From: a virus
Reading direction: 5' to 3' (one strand)
Length of the DNA: 64,000 bases
IMG/VR virus record: IMGVR_UViG_3300044638_008494
Span: 1-64,000 of that record
The notes under the pieces are model-generated. The model ran no database searches. It was not told the DNA's origin and worked only from the letters and a program-made list of their open reading frames with translations. Below, piece after piece: positions 11,787-19,237 of this stretch. Numbering within the stretch: position 1 is the first letter of the stretch; every line of letters starts with the position of its first letter. The translations under genes were made by a program, and so were the position numbers.

Positions 11787-12225
11787 ATTCTTTATTAAAA
11801 TGGTATTTGGTTTGTATATCAATATTAAAAGTATTTTGTACCCATTCTAGGCTTAAATTTTTAATATCATTTTCATTTATTCTAATAATAAAAAAACCAT
11901 TGTTTTGTAGCCATTCATCTTTTTTTTGATCGCGCTTTAAACTGTTTAAAAAGCCAATTCTTGTTTTGTGATGAAATTTTGAAAATGTATTGTGGAAATT
12001 ACCATCTGCCTCCACAGCAAGCATTTTATCAAAATTAATTAAATCACAATTTAATTTTGTTCCTAGTACGGGAAACTCTTCAACGCAATTATCGTACTTC
12101 CAGTATTGTTTAAAGAATTGTTTTATATTAAACTGGAATTTGCTTTTAGACTCTTTATCCCAATCAATCCTGTATTTTTTTAATGATACGCTTTTTGTCC
12201 TACTAAAAACATCCTTGAGTTTCAC
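11764..12225 (-). CDS. DUF559/Vsr-like endonuclease
   Basis: EEFPV..CD..AVEADGNFH..RDQKKDEWL..NG..IIRI. Confidence 0.8.
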   Translation of the reverse strand: MKLKDVFSRTKSVSLKKYRIDWDKESKSKFQFNIKQFFKQYWKYDNCVEEFPVLGTKLNCDLINFDKMLAVEADGNFHNTFSKFHHKTRIGFLNSLKRDQKKDEWLQNNGFFIIRINENDIKNLSLEWVQNTFNIDIQTKYHFNKEYVESSND

Positions 12226-13367
12226 ATTGTTAGATCTTTAAATCTATCAAAAAGGTATTTTTGGATTGGCTCGCTATCTTCAATAAATTGACGAAGACCA
12301 TTTACGCCCTGAATTTTTTCTGGCACCTCAATGTTTAGGGATGCAGCCATTTCGGTTCTAAAGTTTGGCTCAAGCTCAAACCAAGCGCCCTTACCATTTG
12401 GTTTGTAAGCAATCTCCCATAGCTGAAGAAGATCGGCCAACTCATAACTTGTCCAAACACTTTTGCCACCTTTTTGACCATAACGAATTGGATATTTAAC
12501 TTCAACCATATTCTTTTCGTTATTGCTCTTGACAATTTTGGCTTTTGCCATATGTCCAACTACTTTACTGCCCTTTTCTCCCTCATGAATCAAATCGCCG
12601 CCAAATCGTGGAAGAAATTCAATAACAACATCGGCTTGGTGTTCAAGCGCTCTTGGGCCGCTTGCCTTACCTTGCTTTGGAACGGCAATTTCGTATGGAT
12701 TAATTTTAATCTGGTCACGAATTTGTGAAATATAAATATCAACATGCCCACGCTTTGCCATTGCAAGACCAACCTTTTTCAAGAACACAGAGGTAATTAG
12801 GCTTCCACCACCAACAGTGATTGATTCATCTTCTGCTTTTTTAGCGTCATCTCTTTTGATTAGAGAATCAACCGAATCAGTGATAAAAAAGTATTCTGTG
12901 TTTGTTGGATTGTTTGTAATAAGGTCACGTTTCAATTTGAAAACAGCCTCATAGATATTACTTTCAAATACAAAGCATGCGCCGTCCACCCACTCAGCGG
13001 TATTGTAAACAAAATTAATGCCAGACCTGTCTCTTATTTCTTCAGAAAGGCGACCTTCGCTTTTAATAAAGATCCCCCTGCGCTTTCTTGATCGGTCTTT
13101 TAAAAAGTGATGCATGAAATCTAGAGAAGCGCTAGTCTTACCGCCAGAAGCAAGACCAACAAACCTGTGAGCGCCAGGTCCAAGGCCACCGCTAAGCATA
13201 GAAGTAAGAAGAAGGCTTGAGCATCCGACTTTATATTCGTGCGCCTCTTCGTAATTATAGTGATCTTCTTTTGTACTTTTTAAAATAGATTCCAGCTGAT
13301 CTTCTGGAGCCATTACTTTTTCTGCGTCTGTTGAAATTTTACCTTTAGCCATAGTTATTTTTTCCAA
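12222..13367 (-). CDS. recA: RecA/UvsX-like recombinase
   Basis: Walker A GLASGGKTS, SEGR, TDSVDSL, ISQIR, ALEH, KSN. Confidence 0.88.
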   Translation of the reverse strand: MEKITMAKGKISTDAEKVMAPEDQLESILKSTKEDHYNYEEAHEYKVGCSSLLLTSMLSGGLGPGAHRFVGLASGGKTSASLDFMHHFLKDRSRKRRGIFIKSEGRLSEEIRDRSGINFVYNTAEWVDGACFVFESNIYEAVFKLKRDLITNNPTNTEYFFITDSVDSLIKRDDAKKAEDESITVGGGSLITSVFLKKVGLAMAKRGHVDIYISQIRDQIKINPYEIAVPKQGKASGPRALEHQADVVIEFLPRFGGDLIHEGEKGSKVVGHMAKAKIVKSNNEKNMVEVKYPIRYGQKGGKSVWTSYELADLLQLWEIAYKPNGKGAWFELEPNFRTEMAASLNIEVPEKIQGVNGLRQFIEDSEPIQKYLFDRFKDLTM

Positions 13368-13708
13368 ATTTTTAAGAAATCATTAAGTGATTTTAACTTT
13401 TCTTTCTTTGGTTCTTCAGTTAGTATAGCAGGTTTTAATTCTTTTTCAATATCTTCTTCTATTTCAAAACGTTTTATTTTTTCTGGATTAAATTTGTATT
13501 TAGCCCACTCCTCTTTAAGAAATTTATCTCCATTAGGAGTGATAAACCAAGCAAGGCTTGGGATTTTAAACTTTACCTCCAGGCCCATCCAGAAAGCTTC
13601 ATCCTCATGCCTTGAGGAAAGCTGATTCATTATTTTCATTTCTCTTGGCCAATTAGTATGTTTGCCAAGATGCTTTGATATAAAAGCTTTTTTAAAACTT
13701 GAGCCCAT
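13355..13708 (-). CDS. hypothetical protein, first gene of replication operon
   Basis: 117-aa ORF directly behind a strong promoter, overlapping recA. Confidence 0.7.
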   Translation of the reverse strand: MGSSFKKAFISKHLGKHTNWPREMKIMNQLSSRHEDEAFWMGLEVKFKIPSLAWFITPNGDKFLKEEWAKYKFNPEKIKRFEIEEDIEKELKPAILTEEPKKEKLKSLNDFLKIWKK

Positions 13709-13715
13709 TTAGGGC

Positions 13716-13744
13716 ATAATAGAGTAACTTTTTTACAGTGTCAA
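13716..13744 (-). promoter_or_regulatory. sigma70-type promoter TTGACA-17-TATTAT, 7 nt before ATG
   Basis: Near-consensus hexamers at the head of the replication operon. Confidence 0.8.
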
Positions 13745-13768
13745 ATATTTAATTTTTAAATATTTTTA

Positions 13769-14464
13769 TTATCCGCAACTAGTAGTTGTTGTATAAACGG
13801 TTATTATTAATTGTTTTTTATTTTGAGTTGTATACTCTACTGGCATAATTAATGTTAGTTCTGGCTGAAATGCATTTTGAAAATCGCAAAGGACGGGGCA
13901 AAACACCAAACTTCCCGATGTGTTACCGGGCACCGCACAGCCATTTGGATTTGTAGCAATCGATTCTGAAGTTACTCTATACTTTAATTTATATTTTATT
14001 GTTGCATTACACCTTTTTGTTGTTGGTCCACCAACGTCTTCAGGATCCTTAACATCTGTTTCTGTATCTGTATCTGTATTACAAGTACAAGAGCAACTAT
14101 TGCCGCAGCTGCATTCTCCGCTATTTTCAGTTTCAGATTCGTTGTCAGAGTAAGGGTCCGACAGCTCTGGTTCGCCAAGCTCACAGCTTATTATTTCGGC
14201 ATATTGTTCTACATTACAATCAATCTCTATAATGCAACCCGTAAGGGCGCTAAGAACAGGGAATGATGCGCTTAATGTTGATTGGGTTGTTGGAAAAACA
14301 TCTTCTGCTTCTGGGCATTCAGGCCCTTCAACTAATTCTTCCCAAAATGTAGTCGTATTATTTGTAGTTGTGGTAGTGCATGTGCCGCCGCCACCTCCGC
14401 CTTTTGCGCAGCAGCTAGAGAATTTTGTAAAACCAAATTTTGTATCGCGTAGTAGTGTGTTCAT
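13769..14464 (-). CDS. Cys/Thr/acidic-rich hypothetical protein
   Basis: 231-aa ORF, poly-Gly and poly-Thr tracts, CSCGNSCSCTC cluster. Confidence 0.65.
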   Translation of the reverse strand: MNTLLRDTKFGFTKFSSCCAKGGGGGGTCTTTTTNNTTTFWEELVEGPECPEAEDVFPTTQSTLSASFPVLSALTGCIIEIDCNVEQYAEIISCELGEPELSDPYSDNESETENSGECSCGNSCSCTCNTDTDTETDVKDPEDVGGPTTKRCNATIKYKLKYRVTSESIATNPNGCAVPGNTSGSLVFCPVLCDFQNAFQPELTLIMPVEYTTQNKKQLIITVYTTTTSCG

Positions 14465-14468
14465 GGCC

Positions 14469-15011
14469 TTATTGTACGTTTAATCTTAGCAAGCAATATC
14501 CATTTGCTGTATTTTCAGTTACTTCGCTTAGGAACGTGCCGATGCGGTTTACCCCATTTGTAGCAACTCTTCCATTTGCGCCAACATATGCAGCCGCGCC
14601 AATCGTTGGATATCCAGCAACAGCTGGGTCAATGTCGTTTATAAGAACAGTGCCTTTTGTAAGAACTGGAACTGCTTGTTGCGGAAGAACGGCATCTCTT
14701 TCAGCAAGAAGCTGCGGCTCCCAAATTAATGGCGTTCCATTTTCATCAGTTTCAATAACGTCTTTTAAAAGAATACCAATGGCCAAATCGATCGTGGATG
14801 TTGTTTTTGTTACTTTGCCAACAGGAACAAATGAGGACGACATTGTGTTGCTAATATTAGAAAGATTAGAAAGTGAAAGCCCTTCGCCATAAATATCTTT
14901 CCAATTAGTGTTGATTTTTACAAGCGTACCCTTTGTTGCTACGCCATCATAAGCAAAAAGGTTTAATACATCATGCTGGCTGAAATCTCTGAATGGCTTT
15001 AAGTTTGGCAT
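14469..15011 (-). CDS. putative capsid decoration/cement protein
   Basis: 180 aa, Gly/Ala/Val-rich beta pattern (KGTLVK, AIGILL, VPVLTKG, GAAAYVGANG, IGTFL) typical of cement proteins; inference. Confidence 0.5.
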   Translation of the reverse strand: MPNLKPFRDFSQHDVLNLFAYDGVATKGTLVKINTNWKDIYGEGLSLSNLSNISNTMSSSFVPVGKVTKTTSTIDLAIGILLKDVIETDENGTPLIWEPQLLAERDAVLPQQAVPVLTKGTVLINDIDPAVAGYPTIGAAAYVGANGRVATNGVNRIGTFLSEVTENTANGYCLLRLNVQ

Positions 15012-15041
15012 ATTCTTATTATAGTTTTATTATAGTTTTAT

Positions 15042-17477
15042 TTATTGAGCGTACGGACGAATTCTTTTTGCTATTTCCACGCCTGGCTCAGAAGTTGAAG
15101 GAACATTTACGTCTGAGAAAATTTGTCCTCTTTTTTGGGCAATTTTTTGCTTTAATTTTTGCATTTTGTGCCATTTTCTATTCTTTTTATTTGCATTTGG
15201 CAAAACTTTATCAACAAGCTGGCGTATTCTTAAGTTAAGCTCTTTTCCTGCCTTGATTTTTGAAATTGTTTTTGACTCTGAAGCGCTCGGGCCAGAAGAG
15301 TATGCTTTGTATGTTAGTTTTGCCCCATCATTTGGAGGTGTGATATTGTGACGATATGGGTATCTTTTTTGATATGTTCCTCTGTCACTAGCAGTATGTT
15401 TTGGGAACAGTTTGTGTGCGCCAACAGCACTTACACCAGTCTGCAAAGCACTATCAATACTATCAAGAGATCCATAGCCGCTGTAAATAAGCGATAAGTT
15501 TCCGCCATTAGTTCCTACTTCGGTGTTTAATTTTGTTGTTATAATTTCAATTGCATAATATGCGCCGCTAGGAATAATACCATTCCATGTTCCTGTGGCC
15601 ATTGATTTGCCAAAAATTTCATTATCATACAATTGATTATAAAATTTGTAAAAATAAGTATCTTTTAATGGCTCATCTTGTTTTAAGTGACCATTTGACG
15701 ATATGGATTTTTTATAACCAGTAGCAGTTTCCATTGGAATTTGAATTCCAGACTGCAATACTTGCTCATATGTTATTTGTTTACCATCAATAATATATCC
15801 ACTTTTTTGAACATACGTTCCTGAACTAATGGCTTTTGTTATTCCAATGCCAGAGCTTGTATTATCTCCAATTGATAAAAATATTCCCCCTACAACTCTG
15901 CCATTTACAATACTCGCGCCAGAGAATAAAAATACTGGCCCAATATATTCGCTAGGCATTGGCGCAAAATAACTTTCTCCTTGTTGCCTTGGGCCATTCC
16001 AAGATGGCACCGCTGCTCTCTGGTACGTGTATGGAACATTGACCTGAATTCCTTCTGGAAGTACGTTTCCATTGGCAAAGTTTTCACTATCAATAAATAG
16101 CGTTGGGGCTTGGAATGCTAGCGTTGTAACACGCTTATCTTTGCGGCACACTGATTTTCCGCCAATTAATGGTTTTTTCACAGCTGCTCTTTGCAAGTCA
16201 GCAGATGATGCTGCGCGAGGGTGTCCGCTTGCAACAGCCCAGGGTCCTTGCAATCTTCTTGGATCTGTTTTTTTCCAATCACCAAATGAAGATGGTTGAT
16301 GCACATAAATAACTCCAAGTTGTCCGCTGTTAGCTCTTTGATTGACATTTAATCTTCCGCTTATTGCAATGCACCATGCTCCAGAACCATATTGGGTAGA
16401 TACTGTATTATCAAAATAAATTTGTTTGCGAGAGTCTGTGGTGTTGACAAATCTTTTATATACTGGGTTTTCGGAGCCTAATGCAGCTTCGCTATATTCC
16501 CCATTGACGTTATTAATCCATCCGCTTTGCACACAATGATTGATCCATCCTTGTCCTGATGCTGGGTTATACCATGAACTATTACTTATGGTGAGTTGAT
16601 TTGCTGAAAATTGAGATTTTAATACATTTTGTTTGTATTCTTCTGTATAAACATCTTCTAATGAATTTGAATATCCAGTTTCTAATCCGTGTGGGCTAAC
16701 ATAGCATATTTGCTTATAATCGGCTGTTCCTGTAGAAATAACGATCAGCCCTTTTACATTCGTTGGTCCTTGTGTGGCGATTTTTGTAGGAAAATTATAC
16801 CCACCGCCTTGATAAAAATTAATTGTTGTTGGGTATGGAATGTTGAATCCAGTCAAGTTTGTATTATCATAAACAGATTTTTCTTTTCCTTGTCCAAATC
16901 TTGTTAATGCTGGGTGCCACCGGTAATATGTTTTTCTACTTTCTTCTCTGGAAATAGTTCCTGCAAATTTTGGTCTAAAGTTTAGGTCCCCAGATGTTCC
17001 AGCAATTCTAATATCAATAGTATTTGATGTTTGTTCAGGAAATCTTAATCTAGCAAATGGAAATTTATTATTTTGAAATGTTAATTTTGAATTTTGTTTG
17101 TGGTCAAATGGTTTGAAAAAATCGTTTTCTTGGTATGGGTAGTTATCACGAGAAAAAACAAAGTCTCTTAATTGACCGACAAGGTTCGTCTTTAATTTGC
17201 ATGAAGAATAAAAATGGTCTGATTCGACGGCCATTCTCCATGTTTGAAGGGTTTTGCTTTCTACTGTTGGAGATATGTACGAATTAATTTCTTTTCTTAT
17301 AACTGCTTTTGGGTTTCTTGATTTTAAAGTCCCAACGTTTTCCAAATCAACATAAGCGTCTTTAATTCCAAATACGCTGGTTTTATTAAGATCTGTAAAT
17401 CCAAGATCTTCACTGACGGCAATGTTGCCACCAAGCCCAAGTTTTCTGGCCTGCTCTTTTGTTAACTGTGTTGACAT
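15042..17477 (-). CDS. large hypothetical protein, probably virion-associated
   Basis: 811-aa ORF rich in SG/TG dipeptides like the tail proteins; basic C-terminus. Confidence 0.7.
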   Translation of the reverse strand: MSTQLTKEQARKLGLGGNIAVSEDLGFTDLNKTSVFGIKDAYVDLENVGTLKSRNPKAVIRKEINSYISPTVESKTLQTWRMAVESDHFYSSCKLKTNLVGQLRDFVFSRDNYPYQENDFFKPFDHKQNSKLTFQNNKFPFARLRFPEQTSNTIDIRIAGTSGDLNFRPKFAGTISREESRKTYYRWHPALTRFGQGKEKSVYDNTNLTGFNIPYPTTINFYQGGGYNFPTKIATQGPTNVKGLIVISTGTADYKQICYVSPHGLETGYSNSLEDVYTEEYKQNVLKSQFSANQLTISNSSWYNPASGQGWINHCVQSGWINNVNGEYSEAALGSENPVYKRFVNTTDSRKQIYFDNTVSTQYGSGAWCIAISGRLNVNQRANSGQLGVIYVHQPSSFGDWKKTDPRRLQGPWAVASGHPRAASSADLQRAAVKKPLIGGKSVCRKDKRVTTLAFQAPTLFIDSENFANGNVLPEGIQVNVPYTYQRAAVPSWNGPRQQGESYFAPMPSEYIGPVFLFSGASIVNGRVVGGIFLSIGDNTSSGIGITKAISSGTYVQKSGYIIDGKQITYEQVLQSGIQIPMETATGYKKSISSNGHLKQDEPLKDTYFYKFYNQLYDNEIFGKSMATGTWNGIIPSGAYYAIEIITTKLNTEVGTNGGNLSLIYSGYGSLDSIDSALQTGVSAVGAHKLFPKHTASDRGTYQKRYPYRHNITPPNDGAKLTYKAYSSGPSASESKTISKIKAGKELNLRIRQLVDKVLPNANKKNRKWHKMQKLKQKIAQKRGQIFSDVNVPSTSEPGVEIAKRIRPYAQ

Positions 17478-17512
17478 ATTTTTTTAGAATGTTTAAAACT
17501 TTAAAAACTTTA

Positions 17513-17647
17513 ATCCGGTGGGTCTATCATTCTTGCAGGTGCACTTCGCTCGCTCAGGCTTCTCGATCTGGTAGCCGTGGCTCCAGGCTGAGTTTACTTC
17601 CAAACGGACCCTCTCGGTTACACTTGCATGCTAGACAGACAGACCGC
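17513..17647 (-). ncRNA. 135-nt GC-rich structured RNA following the ribozyme omega-G
   Basis: 75/135 G+C in an AT-rich genome; ends pair (GGUCUGUC/GAUAGACC, UGCAAGUGUA/UGCACCUGCA) with internal hairpins. Confidence 0.6.
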
Positions 17648-17928
17648 CAATTGTGTTATCGTACAGTTGTTTATACCATACATCTATATATTTCTATATA
17701 GTTCAGACTATATCTTGGTACCAGAAATTAATCTGGCACACCGGGCGCTCTTGGGCAGTTTTATTGTTGGGACTCAACCGCCTAGTCGTTACACCTTCTA
17801 TCCTATCTTTCCCAGATAGCTTGGCTCGGTATTGTCTTTTCGGCGTTTTTACACGCCAACGAAGGTATCCACCGAATTCACCCAGTAAGGACTGTTGTTA
17901 TAAATTTTTAAAAGAACTTGAACAAGTT
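17648..17928 (-). ncRNA. group I intron/ribozyme (IA-like, ORF-less)
   Basis: P3 ACUGGGUG/CGCCCGGU; P GAAUUCGGUGG; Q AAUACCGAGCCAAG; R GGUGUAACGACUA; S AAGAUAUAGUC; P7.1 GGCGGU/ACUGCC; P8 GUGCCAGA/UCUGGUAC; P9 with GAAA loop; ends AUAACACAAUUG. Confidence 0.9.
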
Positions 17929-17981
17929 ATCCTGTTCACAATATGATTACATCTTAATTTTAAGAATATCCAAAAAAAATT

Positions 17982-18179
17982 TTATCTTTTTTCAAAAGCC
18001 CAGCAATAATGACAAATTTCTGGGGTTACTTTAAATATATCGCGTTTAAAGCATTTATAGCCATTATCCGTATAGTCGCCACCTTGACAGCTGCATCTAT
18101 GAACTGTCACACTTTCTTCGTTTTCAGACCTGTATTTGCAGTTTGAAAATTTATACTCAGCTGATAGGTTTTCTTCCAT
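17982..18179 (-). CDS. small Cys-rich protein
   Basis: 65 aa with several Cys (CSC, CHYC). Confidence 0.6.
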   Translation of the reverse strand: MEENLSAEYKFSNCKYRSENEESVTVHRCSCQGGDYTDNGYKCFKRDIFKVTPEICHYCWAFEKR

Positions 18180-18187
18180 ATTTACTT

Positions 18188-19237
18188 TTACACCTCCAAA
18201 TCGTTAAAAACCATTTCTTCTATTAGAGAATCAAAAGAAATTTTTGGACGCCATCCAAGCTCTTTTTTTGCAGTTTCTGGATTGCCGAGTAATAAATCTA
18301 CTTCAGCTGGTCTGTAAAACTTTTCATTAATTTTTACCAATACTTTCTGGTCATAATAAATTGAATTAGTAGTTTTTTTGAGCAAAAATTTTTCTTCTAA
18401 TTCACCACCTGCCCATTCACCAACGATCCCACATTTACGAAATGCTATTTCAATAAACTCTTTAACAGTGTGCGTTTCGCCAGATGCCAACAAATATTCT
18501 CTAGGATTTTCTTGATTCAGCATCATCCAAATTCCTTCTACAAAATCTTTGGCATGGCTCCAGTCTCTTTTAGCATAAATATTTCCAAGCTCAAGTGGCT
18601 CTATAAAATCCTTGCCAAGATCTAGATCTTTTTTAATTCTGGCTATATGTTTAGTAATTTTTCTAGTTACAAATTCCTCTCCGCGCCTTGGGCTTTCGTG
18701 ATTATATAATAAGCCTTGAATTGCAAAAAGGTTATAGCTTTCTCGATATACTTTAACAATATGTCGCGCAGCGGCTTTGGCTGCCCCATATGGACTTCTT
18801 GGCTTTAATGGATGATTTTCATCTTGTGGGCTGTAGTCTACATCGCCAAGCTCTTCTGAAGATCCTGCATTATAAAACCTGCAAGATGGCGCATGTTTTC
18901 TAACGGCCTCTAAACAGCGTATAACGCCCACAGCATCTATTTCAAATGTTTGTTCGGGTATTTGCCATGATGCTCCAACAAAACTTTGTGCACCTAAATT
19001 AATAAAATAATCCGGCTTTATTTCTCTAACAATATTATCTATAGATTGTGAATCGGAAAGATCACCTGTGATAATTTCAAATCTTGGATGGTCGATTATA
19101 TGCTCTATATTTTTATAATTTTTTGTAGAGCTTCTTCGAACCATGCCATATATTTTATAATCTGTATTTGCAAGAAGATGATCAGCCATATAGCTGCCAT
19201 CTTGTCCGGTTACGCCTGTGATAATAACAGATTTCAT
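18188..19237 (-). CDS. gmd: GDP-mannose 4,6-dehydratase
   Basis: ITGVTGQDGSY, AQSFV, SSEE, PRSPYGAAK, NHESPRRGEEFVTRKI, RDWSHA, RPAEVDLL. Confidence 0.96.
   Translation of the reverse strand: MKSVIITGVTGQDGSYMADHLLANTDYKIYGMVRRSSTKNYKNIEHIIDHPRFEIITGDLSDSQSIDNIVREIKPDYFINLGAQSFVGASWQIPEQTFEIDAVGVIRCLEAVRKHAPSCRFYNAGSSEELGDVDYSPQDENHPLKPRSPYGAAKAAARHIVKVYRESYNLFAIQGLLYNHESPRRGEEFVTRKITKHIARIKKDLDLGKDFIEPLELGNIYAKRDWSHAKDFVEGIWMMLNQENPREYLLASGETHTVKEFIEIAFRKCGIVGEWAGGELEEKFLLKKTTNSIYYDQKVLVKINEKFYRPAEVDLLLGNPETAKKELGWRPKISFDSLIEEMVFNDLEV

Follow-up and report, generated by a model that had tools for sequence, protein, structure and literature searches.

Why does a virus genome of low G+C content carry, directly beside a group I intron, a short stretch strongly enriched in G and C, and what could such a stretch do there? 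The stretch in question, 17513–17647, lies in a window of 64,000 nt (the whole piece of DNA analysed here, i.e., the first 64 kb of a single 107-kb virus contig). Its G+C content is 0.556, against 0.349 (35%) for the genome, and it is the only 120-nt segment with at least 53% G+C in the first 53 kb. A preliminary description, made from the letters alone, had proposed a divergent mimic or decoy of SRP RNA, or else a new class of noncoding RNA matured by the ribozyme.

At the other end of the contig, outside the window (100–107 kb), many 120-nt segments reach 53–70% G+C, versus 35% for the remainder; these last 7 kb could be foreign or host DNA, or reflect an assembly join.

Genomic setting

All genes around the element and the intron lie on the minus strand; those nearby encode a GDP-mannose dehydratase, a GT17 glycosyltransferase, a dUTPase, a dCMP deaminase, a RecA-like protein and, according to a weak match, a cement protein. 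The G+C-rich RNA is likewise a minus-strand feature, running in the same direction as the genes, and the letters quoted below are the reverse complement of the plus strand. L003 denotes the homologous locus of the one other lineage in which we found the element. Read in the direction of the genes, the features are as follows:

17982–18179, minus strand: 65-aa Cys-rich ORF upstream of the intron, with its UAA stop codon at 17984–17982
17965–17981, minus strand: 5′ exon tail, 17 untranslated nt from the stop codon of the 65-aa ORF (17982–17984) to the 5′ splice site
17648–17964, minus strand: group I intron, Twort/IA2-like, 317 nt (RF00028; homology of the 3′ end; covarying P1 and P2)
17520–17647, minus strand: structured RNA element, nt 1–128, delimited by an ungapped alignment with L003 (element nt n is window coordinate 17648 − n)
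17513–17519, minus strand: 3′ rod extension, in which nt 129–132 (ACCG) pair with nt 2–5 (CGGU) in the minimum free energy folds
17478–17512, minus strand: A/U-rich leader without structure, extending from the rod to the ATG of the 811-aa ORF and lacking a Shine-Dalgarno sequence
15042–17477, minus strand: 811-aa ORF of no assigned function, hypervariable (48% amino acid identity to L003)

The 811-aa ORF starts at 17477 and cannot extend upstream, because an in-frame stop codon is found at 17486–17484. Since, in addition, the 65-aa ORF stops upstream of the intron, the latter lies in a spacer between two cistrons. The distance from the omega-G of the intron to the ATG is 170 nt in the window and 169 nt in L003. 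We found no terminator 3′ of the rod and no conserved processing site on that side, nor any switching pairing with the start region that would be common to both lineages.

Two other candidate signals were discarded. In the window, a U-run of the 5′ exon tail can pair with the A-run before the ATG; this pairing is absent in L003. The motif TGTAATNNTATT, considered as a recurring promoter, has 28 matches in the genome versus 19.6 expected, an enrichment too low to be retained.

The element folds into a rod maintained by compensatory changes

As the preliminary description had it, the 135-nt stretch (G+C 55.6%, there given as 56%) folds into a rod with paired ends. The minimum free energy of 17513–17647 is −45.6 kcal/mol and the z-score relative to dinucleotide shuffles is −2.2, with 4 of 200 shuffled sequences folding equally well; thermodynamics alone would thus lend the predicted fold modest support, and we rely mainly on covariation, a z-score of −2.2 being unconvincing by itself. 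The two inner arms described earlier correspond only roughly to the structure, which is a three-way junction bearing one small hairpin (nt 31–38) and one long arm (nt 39–100). The helices, in element numbering, are:

H1: nt 8–14 with 120–126
H2: nt 21–28 with 106–113
H3: nt 31–32 with 37–38, closed by a GAGA loop (the short CC-GAGA-GG hairpin, nt 31–38)
H4: nt 39–46 with 93–100
H5: nt 51–52 with 89–90, and nt 56–58 with 84–86
H6: nt 62–68 with 73–80

In the window, the 3′ extension brings the helix to within one base of the 3′ splice site. The equivalent 4 bp of L003 are GAUC/GAUC (nt 4–7 with 146–149), and the two rods end 1–3 nt from the splice site. The fold is predicted to persist within both the pre-mRNA and the spliced RNA, with a mean pair probability of 0.68–0.82.

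Against L003 (positions 2817–2944), the element aligns without gaps over 128 nt at 55% identity. Covariation between homologues, proposed earlier as a check on the fold, was plainly visible: of the 33 pairs in the RNAalifold consensus, 13 were changed on both sides, 6 on a single side, 14 were unchanged and none was broken, in what is a single pairwise comparison with a structure derived from the same two sequences. When the 3′ partners were slid by 1–3 columns, only 30–42% of the cells could pair. None of 500 partner shuffles reached the observed values, and neither did any of 300 column shuffles; in the latter control, in which each shuffled alignment was refolded, we counted at most 10 double changes and obtained an energy of −10.2 ± 2.8, as compared to the observed −30.0.

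Conservation is distributed unevenly along the rod. The most conserved portion is the following:

17556–17618 (about nt 30–92), minus strand: conserved core, comprising ACCGAGAGG, GAAGUAAACUCAGCCU and CAGAUYGAGAAGCC

This core contains purine-rich internal loops and the GNRA side hairpin. Its identity to L003 (nt 30–93) is 51/64 (80%), versus 20/64 (31%) for the outer helices. H1 and H2 are in fact only about 31% identical, which is the level expected by chance, yet all 14 of their pairs are kept, nine of them through double changes. In short, it is at the junction and in the internal loops that conserved residues accumulate, the helices being free to drift.

The structure can also be assigned to a strand. 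Each lineage has six G·U pairs that would become A·C on the opposite strand, and the antisense sequence folds worse than the sense (z = −1.1 versus −2.2 in the window; +1.9 versus −1.05 in L003), so the structure belongs to the sense RNA.

Other origins of the stretch were considered and rejected. It is not a coding fragment, as stop codons occur in all sense frames and the substitutions are compensatory rather than codon-like; an antisense ORF (17459–17701) is not conserved in L003; and a remnant of rRNA or of another exon carried along with the intron is contradicted by the lack of any Rfam match and by a fold kept through compensation. In the 107-kb genome, neither blastn nor CM R1 detected a second copy of the kind expected from a repeat, a DGR template or a mobile element. 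Inspection by eye revealed no K-turn and no 11-nt tetraloop-receptor motif in the element. The 135-nt stretch is confirmed as a genuine, conserved folded RNA that belongs to no Rfam family and was previously undescribed.

Known RNA families and the resemblance to SRP RNA

We searched 17300–18200 on both strands with cmscan, using permissive filters, a threshold of E ≤ 10 and all 4227 Rfam families, including the SRP, 6S, RNase P and tmRNA models that had been suggested for this purpose. Only the group I intron was found, and the element remained unmatched. The intron family RF00028 was also the only one found in the whole window at the Rfam gathering score, and ARAGORN detected no tRNA or tmRNA in the window. 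Search length matters here: the L003 intron was missed, even at E ≤ 0.01, when cmscan was run over several loci together, and scored 71.6 bits once the search was confined to a slice of 651 nt. When Rfam models return nothing on a long input, the filters may thus have missed a true match.

The string on which the SRP proposal had been based, AACC-GAG-AGGGUCC-GUUU-GGAAGUAAA-CUC, is indeed present (nt 29–58). It does not form one hairpin arm, however, since it extends over the small hairpin, the 5′ strand of H4, an internal loop and some of H5. The GUUU supposed to form a loop is itself part of a strand of H4: CGUUU (CGUCU in L003) pairs with GAGCG (GGACG) 50 nt downstream, and H4 shows compensatory changes at pairs 39–100 and 45–94. 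A UCC-GUUU-GGA hairpin, which would imitate the SRP tetraloop, cannot form in L003 due to a C·A mismatch. The putative loop reads GUUU in the window and GUCU in L003, neither of them GNRA; the sole GNRA loop of the element is GAGA (nt 33–36), on the 2-bp side hairpin and away from the SRP-like stretch.

The similarity to bacterial SRP (4.5S) RNA (RF00169) thus consists of a GC-rich rod of about 115–135 nt and a few shared letters in the window copy, a loose resemblance of the kind GGUCCG..GGAAG..CAGCC. Those letters are not conserved, GGGUCC having changed to GGAUUC and GGAAG to AGAAG in the homologue, and the region pairs differently, a covarying long-range helix taking the place of the required hairpin. 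Unlike SRP RNA (RF00169, RF01854), the element has no match to the corresponding model at E ≤ 10 and lacks the apical GNRA hairpin and the helix-8 loops. Lack of conservation in homologues was among the outcomes that the preliminary description had named as refuting its proposal, and we therefore abandoned the notion of an SRP mimic or decoy.

The adjoining group I intron

The main landmarks of the intron, all on the minus strand, are:

17965/17964: 5′ splice site
17953–17949: internal guide sequence, GAUGU
17937–17920: P2
17684–17937: match to RF00028, 69.9 bits in the window and 71.6 bits in L003 (gathering score, 50)
17648: omega-G

DNA similarity to the tape-measure intron of Clostridium phage phiCP13O and to introns of Twort-like Staphylococcus phages reaches approximately 17648. 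The Clostridium phage homology ends ..GAUAACAAAAUG and is followed by the exon; in our reading, joining GGGGCU to GAAGGUGGA restores the phiCP13O frame K-G-A-E-G-G-T-A-L-R-N. A scan of IMG/VR for the pattern yielded about 70 distinct introns of this subfamily, nearly all of which end ..(G)AUAACAnAAU(U)G and then continue into coding sequence. The tail of the window intron, GAUAACACAAUUG, ends at G17648. Because the tail of the subfamily ends at the omega-G, the first base of the element is also that of the 3′ exon.

In phiCP13O (L001; JF767208.1, 16097–17165), the tape-measure gene is annotated as two CDSs, the first of which has its stop within the intron; the 5′ splice site is likely to follow GGGGCU, 21 nt before that stop.

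At the other end of the window intron, P1 is formed by 5′-AUAUU (17969–17965), ending at the splice site, with GAUGU (17953–17949). The P1 of L003, 5′-UACAU (2506–2510) with GUGUA (2517–2521), is in the same register. The U·G pair at the splice site is kept (U17965·G17953 in the window, U2510·G2517 in L003), while the other four of four pairs are changed on both sides. All five pairs of P2 are likewise changed on both sides (GAACA/UGUUC in the window versus AGUAG/CUACU in L003), and by our reading there are more compensatory changes in P3, P6 and P8. The hairpin at 17938–17919, with its U-rich tail, might be mistaken for a terminator; more likely it is P2, given that it covaries at five of five pairs and occupies the position of P2 in the relatives.

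The 5′ splice site of L003 is 9 nt past the upstream stop codon, versus 17 nt in the window. No P10 pairing is possible in the window intron or in that of L003, and the intron carries no homing endonuclease gene. With its conserved core (P3–P9), covarying P1 and terminal omega-G, the intron is canonical and predicted to self-splice.

Complementarity between the intron and the rod

A peculiarity of both introns is their J2/3 segment (17887–17919; L003:2550–2579), which at 33 nt is about three times longer than in the approximately 70 relatives (8–11 nt). The extension holds CAAGUUCUUU, invariant in the two lineages, and includes one of two complementary hexamers:

17912–17917, minus strand: GUUCUU in J2/3, invariant in both lineages and complementary to AAGAAU
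17529–17534, minus strand: AAGAAU, element nt 114–119, part of the internal loop that separates H2 from H1, close to the 3′ base of the rod

The L003 counterpart of the second hexamer, AAGAAC, is at nt 129–134 (L003:2945–2950), beyond the 3′ strand of H1, and thus at a non-homologous position. The chance of finding a complement of GUUCUU within nt 105–170 is about 0.10 in the window and 0.15 in L003, i.e., about 0.015 jointly, a figure calculated post hoc. AAGAAU is a possible docking partner of GUUCUU, or possibly a second, splice-site-like substrate for it. The −1 base of the putative helix forms a U·G pair in the window and a C-G pair in L003, and this change would fit a docking helix, predicted to hold the 3′ exon domain on the ribozyme, better than a second splice site. 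L003 also has a GAGAAU at element nt 15–20, in the same internal loop and on its other strand.

Flanking genes, distribution and selection

Across the databases searched, we found only two distinct versions of the element, namely that of the window and the L003 type. The latter represents one other lineage, made up of four contigs (three from IMG/VR, one from JGI) with the same sequence throughout this region, where the order is 70-aa ORF, intron, element and 788-aa ORF. Exact and degenerate patterns of the core retrieved only the L003 type from IMG/VR, JGI metagenomes and GTDB genomes; matches in L024 and L026 (nusA-like gene) were dismissed as chance coding matches. CM R1 gave no match on 100 loci with introns of the same subfamily plus four related phage records. 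Scans of IMG/VR with the 811-aa protein, alone or as a 19-sequence alignment, led back to the same three contigs, and tblastn against GenBank phages produced no match.

Twenty-one relatives of the 811-aa protein were found in Logan/ENA/JGI. Although several of them come from JGI, the L003 type was the only one in which the JGI metagenomes showed the core motif. Members of the 811-aa family may thus not generally be accompanied by the element; alternatively, the contigs in question may be truncated, or the core may have diverged in them.

Identities between the window phage and L003 were as follows:

RecA-like gene: amino acid identity 97.6%; four-fold-site identity 0.62
117-aa ORF: amino acid identity 95%; four-fold-site identity 0.74
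180-aa ORF: amino acid identity 88%; four-fold-site identity 0.60
65-aa ORF: amino acid identity 82%; four-fold-site identity 0.36 (n = 11); nucleotide identity 81%
811-aa ORF: amino acid identity 48%; four-fold-site identity 0.40
Ribozyme (P2 to omega-G): nucleotide identity 89%
Element core (nt 30–93): nucleotide identity 80%

Four-fold sites are thus 0.36–0.40 identical in the two flanking ORFs, versus approximately 0.6 in the conserved backbone genes. The values for the ribozyme (89%) and the element core (80%) exceed those for neutral sites, so both are under purifying selection. Just past the omega-G, sequence identity drops sharply. This drop, together with the hypervariability of the 811-aa gene (the genes adjoining it are 88–98% identical to L003 at the amino acid level), suggests that gene and element move together, the latter being the leader of the former; the suggestion is weakened by the fact that the core motif was not found near the other JGI homologues.

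Four loci of more distant phages (L011–L014) have a homologue of the 65-aa ORF without an intron, element or 811-aa gene at that place. A whole block is missing from them, consisting of the intron, the element and the 811-aa, 180-aa and 231-aa ORFs, between the 65-aa homologue and the genes for the 117-aa and RecA-like proteins. For the 231-aa ORF, tblastn gave no match in L003, which has a 191-aa ORF at that position. The GDP-mannose dehydratase gene (18188–19237) is shared with L011–L014 (72–80%) and is absent from L003. From the comparison of 12222–19237, the window phage and L003 are mosaic relatives.

The 65-aa protein (17982–18179), which is 82% identical in L003 and 50–58% in L011–L014, has a conserved arrangement of six Cys and one His (..C..x14..CSC..x11..C..x12..CHYC). 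No Pfam or PHROG family matches the protein, which, judging from this pattern, may be a small zinc-binding protein.

In G001, the record to which L012 belongs, four or five paralogues of the 811-aa protein (540–916 aa) follow one another at about 93–111 kb; the paralogue loci in the related phage are L017 and L019–L023. They have in common the N-terminal part and a segment around residues 590–680, which suggests a family of variable proteins, possibly involved in host range. A scan of G001 with CM R1 revealed no copy of the element.

Possible roles of the element

Taking as a starting point what the sequence comparisons demonstrate (fold, strand, conservation, abutment on the omega-G, covariation of P1 and P2, purifying selection), we consider that the element is probably an independent RNA domain forming the first part of the 3′ exon, and that it serves as a cis-acting leader of the 811-aa gene in cooperation with the intron. 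We would assign this reading a probability of roughly 60%. According to this scheme, the 65-aa ORF, intron, element and 811-aa ORF would be transcribed in that order, and the intron would remove itself, from 17964 to 17648. Splicing would then join the rod to a point 17 nt past the upstream stop codon and leave it 35–42 nt ahead of the A/U-rich start region of the 811-aa gene. There, to judge from its position, the rod could act as a stable block that governs, for example, mRNA stability or ribosome access.

The argument for a role in cis is that the element is transcribed in the direction of the gene, is not followed by a terminator and has downstream of it an unstructured, A/U-rich start region. 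The cooperation with the intron is suggested by the position of the rod, 1–3 nt from the 3′ splice site, by the lack of a P10 and by the J2/3 complementarity.

An alternative is that the rod is the sensor domain of an allosteric ribozyme or riboswitch, in which a small molecule or protein bound by the compact three-way-junction fold would control the use of the 3′ splice site or the translation of the 811-aa protein. Conserved residues gathered in internal loops and junction, amid drifting helices, are a pattern typical of aptamers, and the coupling of a c-di-GMP-II aptamer to a group I ribozyme in C. difficile proves that such arrangements exist (PMC3984707, PMC9481103). Here, however, the domain is 3′ of the ribozyme rather than 5′, it matches no known aptamer family at E ≤ 10, the two lineages share no alternative pairing, and the gene context gives no hint of a ligand. 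We regard a sensor as unlikely. Similarly unlikely, in our estimation, is the proposal that ribozyme and rod constitute one device through the GUUCUU/AAGAAY match. The ribozyme would then either be regulated allosterically, depending on whether the rod is folded or has bound a ligand, or take that site as a second splice site, closing the rod into a circle and thereby freeing the mRNA of the hypervariable gene.

If the rod were instead released as a stand-alone small RNA, through a ribozyme cut (by hydrolysis at the 3′ splice site or by splicing) and a second cut, it could operate in trans, for example as a protein decoy or sponge. The part of the preliminary description that envisaged a new noncoding RNA class holds insofar as the RNA is structured and undescribed, and its 5′ end coincides with the 3′ splice site of the intron, being set exactly by the omega-G; furthermore, a closed rod with paired termini is the shape typical of stable RNAs. 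Maturation by the ribozyme fits less well with the canonical 5′ splice site: the covarying P1 predicts ligation of the exons over a free 5′ end, and on this ground one would expect a spliced mRNA leader, whereas a free small RNA need not arise. The 3′ side offers neither a terminator nor a conserved processing site with which to complete the release, and the rod is unlike any known small-RNA family. On balance, a free small RNA seems rather improbable.

We are still more doubtful that the rod is a peripheral folding domain with no role after splicing, i.e., one that only folds the intron or defines the 3′ splice site in place of P10. It is true that no P10 can form in either lineage and that a helix comes within 1–3 nt of the splice site; the GNRA loop and GUUCUU/AAGAAY could provide docking contacts. 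Nevertheless, the approximately 70 relatives of the subfamily, in protein-coding genes, have no such domain, and we know of no precedent for an exon-borne folding domain of 128 nt, which also counts against this explanation.

A circularised exon appears very doubtful. GUUCUU would serve as a second guide, guanosine would attack at AAGAAU and the freed 3′ OH would attack the 3′ splice site, so that about 119 nt (134 nt in L003) would be closed into a circle and the downstream mRNA would be cut free. This would account for the invariance of GUUCUU, its location in a J2/3 extension unique to these two introns and the complementary hexamer downstream in both lineages (chance about 0.10 and 0.15), and the rod would bring the two sites together. 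Against it, the hexamers are at non-homologous positions (nt 114–119, before the 3′ strand of H1, versus nt 129–134, after it), the −1 base in L003 is a C (C-G) rather than part of the near-universal U·G, both partners are invariant and hence show no covariation, and the joint chance of about 0.015 is post hoc. Moreover, the canonical upstream P1, with its four compensatory changes, already explains the ribozyme. Finally, an SRP RNA mimic or decoy that binds Ffh is, for the reasons given earlier, extremely improbable.

Comparison with known systems

Group I introns of bacteria and phages are almost always found within protein, tRNA or rRNA genes, and selection on the host gene explains why they continue to splice. 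Here, a complete ribozyme lies in an untranslated spacer and is 89% identical between lineages, while adjacent silent sites are saturated; fused to the ribozyme at its splice site is another conserved folded RNA, which belongs to no known family. Should the element prove to be a mere stable leader hairpin beside a passenger intron, the significance would be modest. If the leader reading is true, this would be a second, differently built case of a group I ribozyme that serves gene control in a leader, the c-di-GMP system of C. difficile being the only natural one described. Found in uncultured phages, ahead of a hypervariable gene and at a mosaic junction, such a case would indicate that self-splicing RNAs are domesticated by phages to control expression, and it would make available a small RNA, of about 450 nt, that lends itself to testing.

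With the Twort/IA2 phage introns (RF00028; phiCP13O and Twort-like Staphylococcus phages) the window intron shares the P7-P9-P9.1 sequences and the 3′ end ..GAUAACAnAAUUG. Those introns, however, interrupt protein-coding genes and their 3′ exon is coding, whereas in the window neither exon is translated, the 3′ exon consists of a folded RNA and J2/3 has about three times the length.

Engineered permuted intron-exon (PIE) group I constructs, which circularise RNA, are similar in that the 3′ splice site is followed downstream by a sequence that could pair with a guide-like segment, and a helix brings the ends together. In contrast to them, the window intron is not split and has a normal 5′ splice site upstream; furthermore, its downstream site amounts to a match of 6 nt that is marginally significant and has a C at −1 in one lineage. 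If the circle reading were true, the rod of about 120–135 nt would give rise to a natural RNA circle.

A close parallel is found in Clostridioides difficile, where Lee et al. 2010 reportedly described a c-di-GMP-II aptamer together with a group I ribozyme in a 5′ UTR. This is the only known natural allosteric group I ribozyme, and reviewers have termed it unique (PMC3984707, PMC9481103, the latter for the reviewers' term). Its aptamer is 5′ of the ribozyme, shifts the 5′ splice site and creates a ribosome-binding site (PMC3984707, PMC9481103). No match to that aptamer class (RF01786) was found upstream of the window ribozyme at E ≤ 10. In the window, unlike in the C. difficile system, the domain belongs to no known class and lies 3′ of the omega-G, the start codon is 170 nt away, and neither a ligand nor a switch is evident. 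If the allosteric reading is nevertheless true, the window would hold a second natural allosteric group I ribozyme. What the two systems have in common is a group I ribozyme in an untranslated leader, fused to a conserved structured RNA that precedes an ORF.
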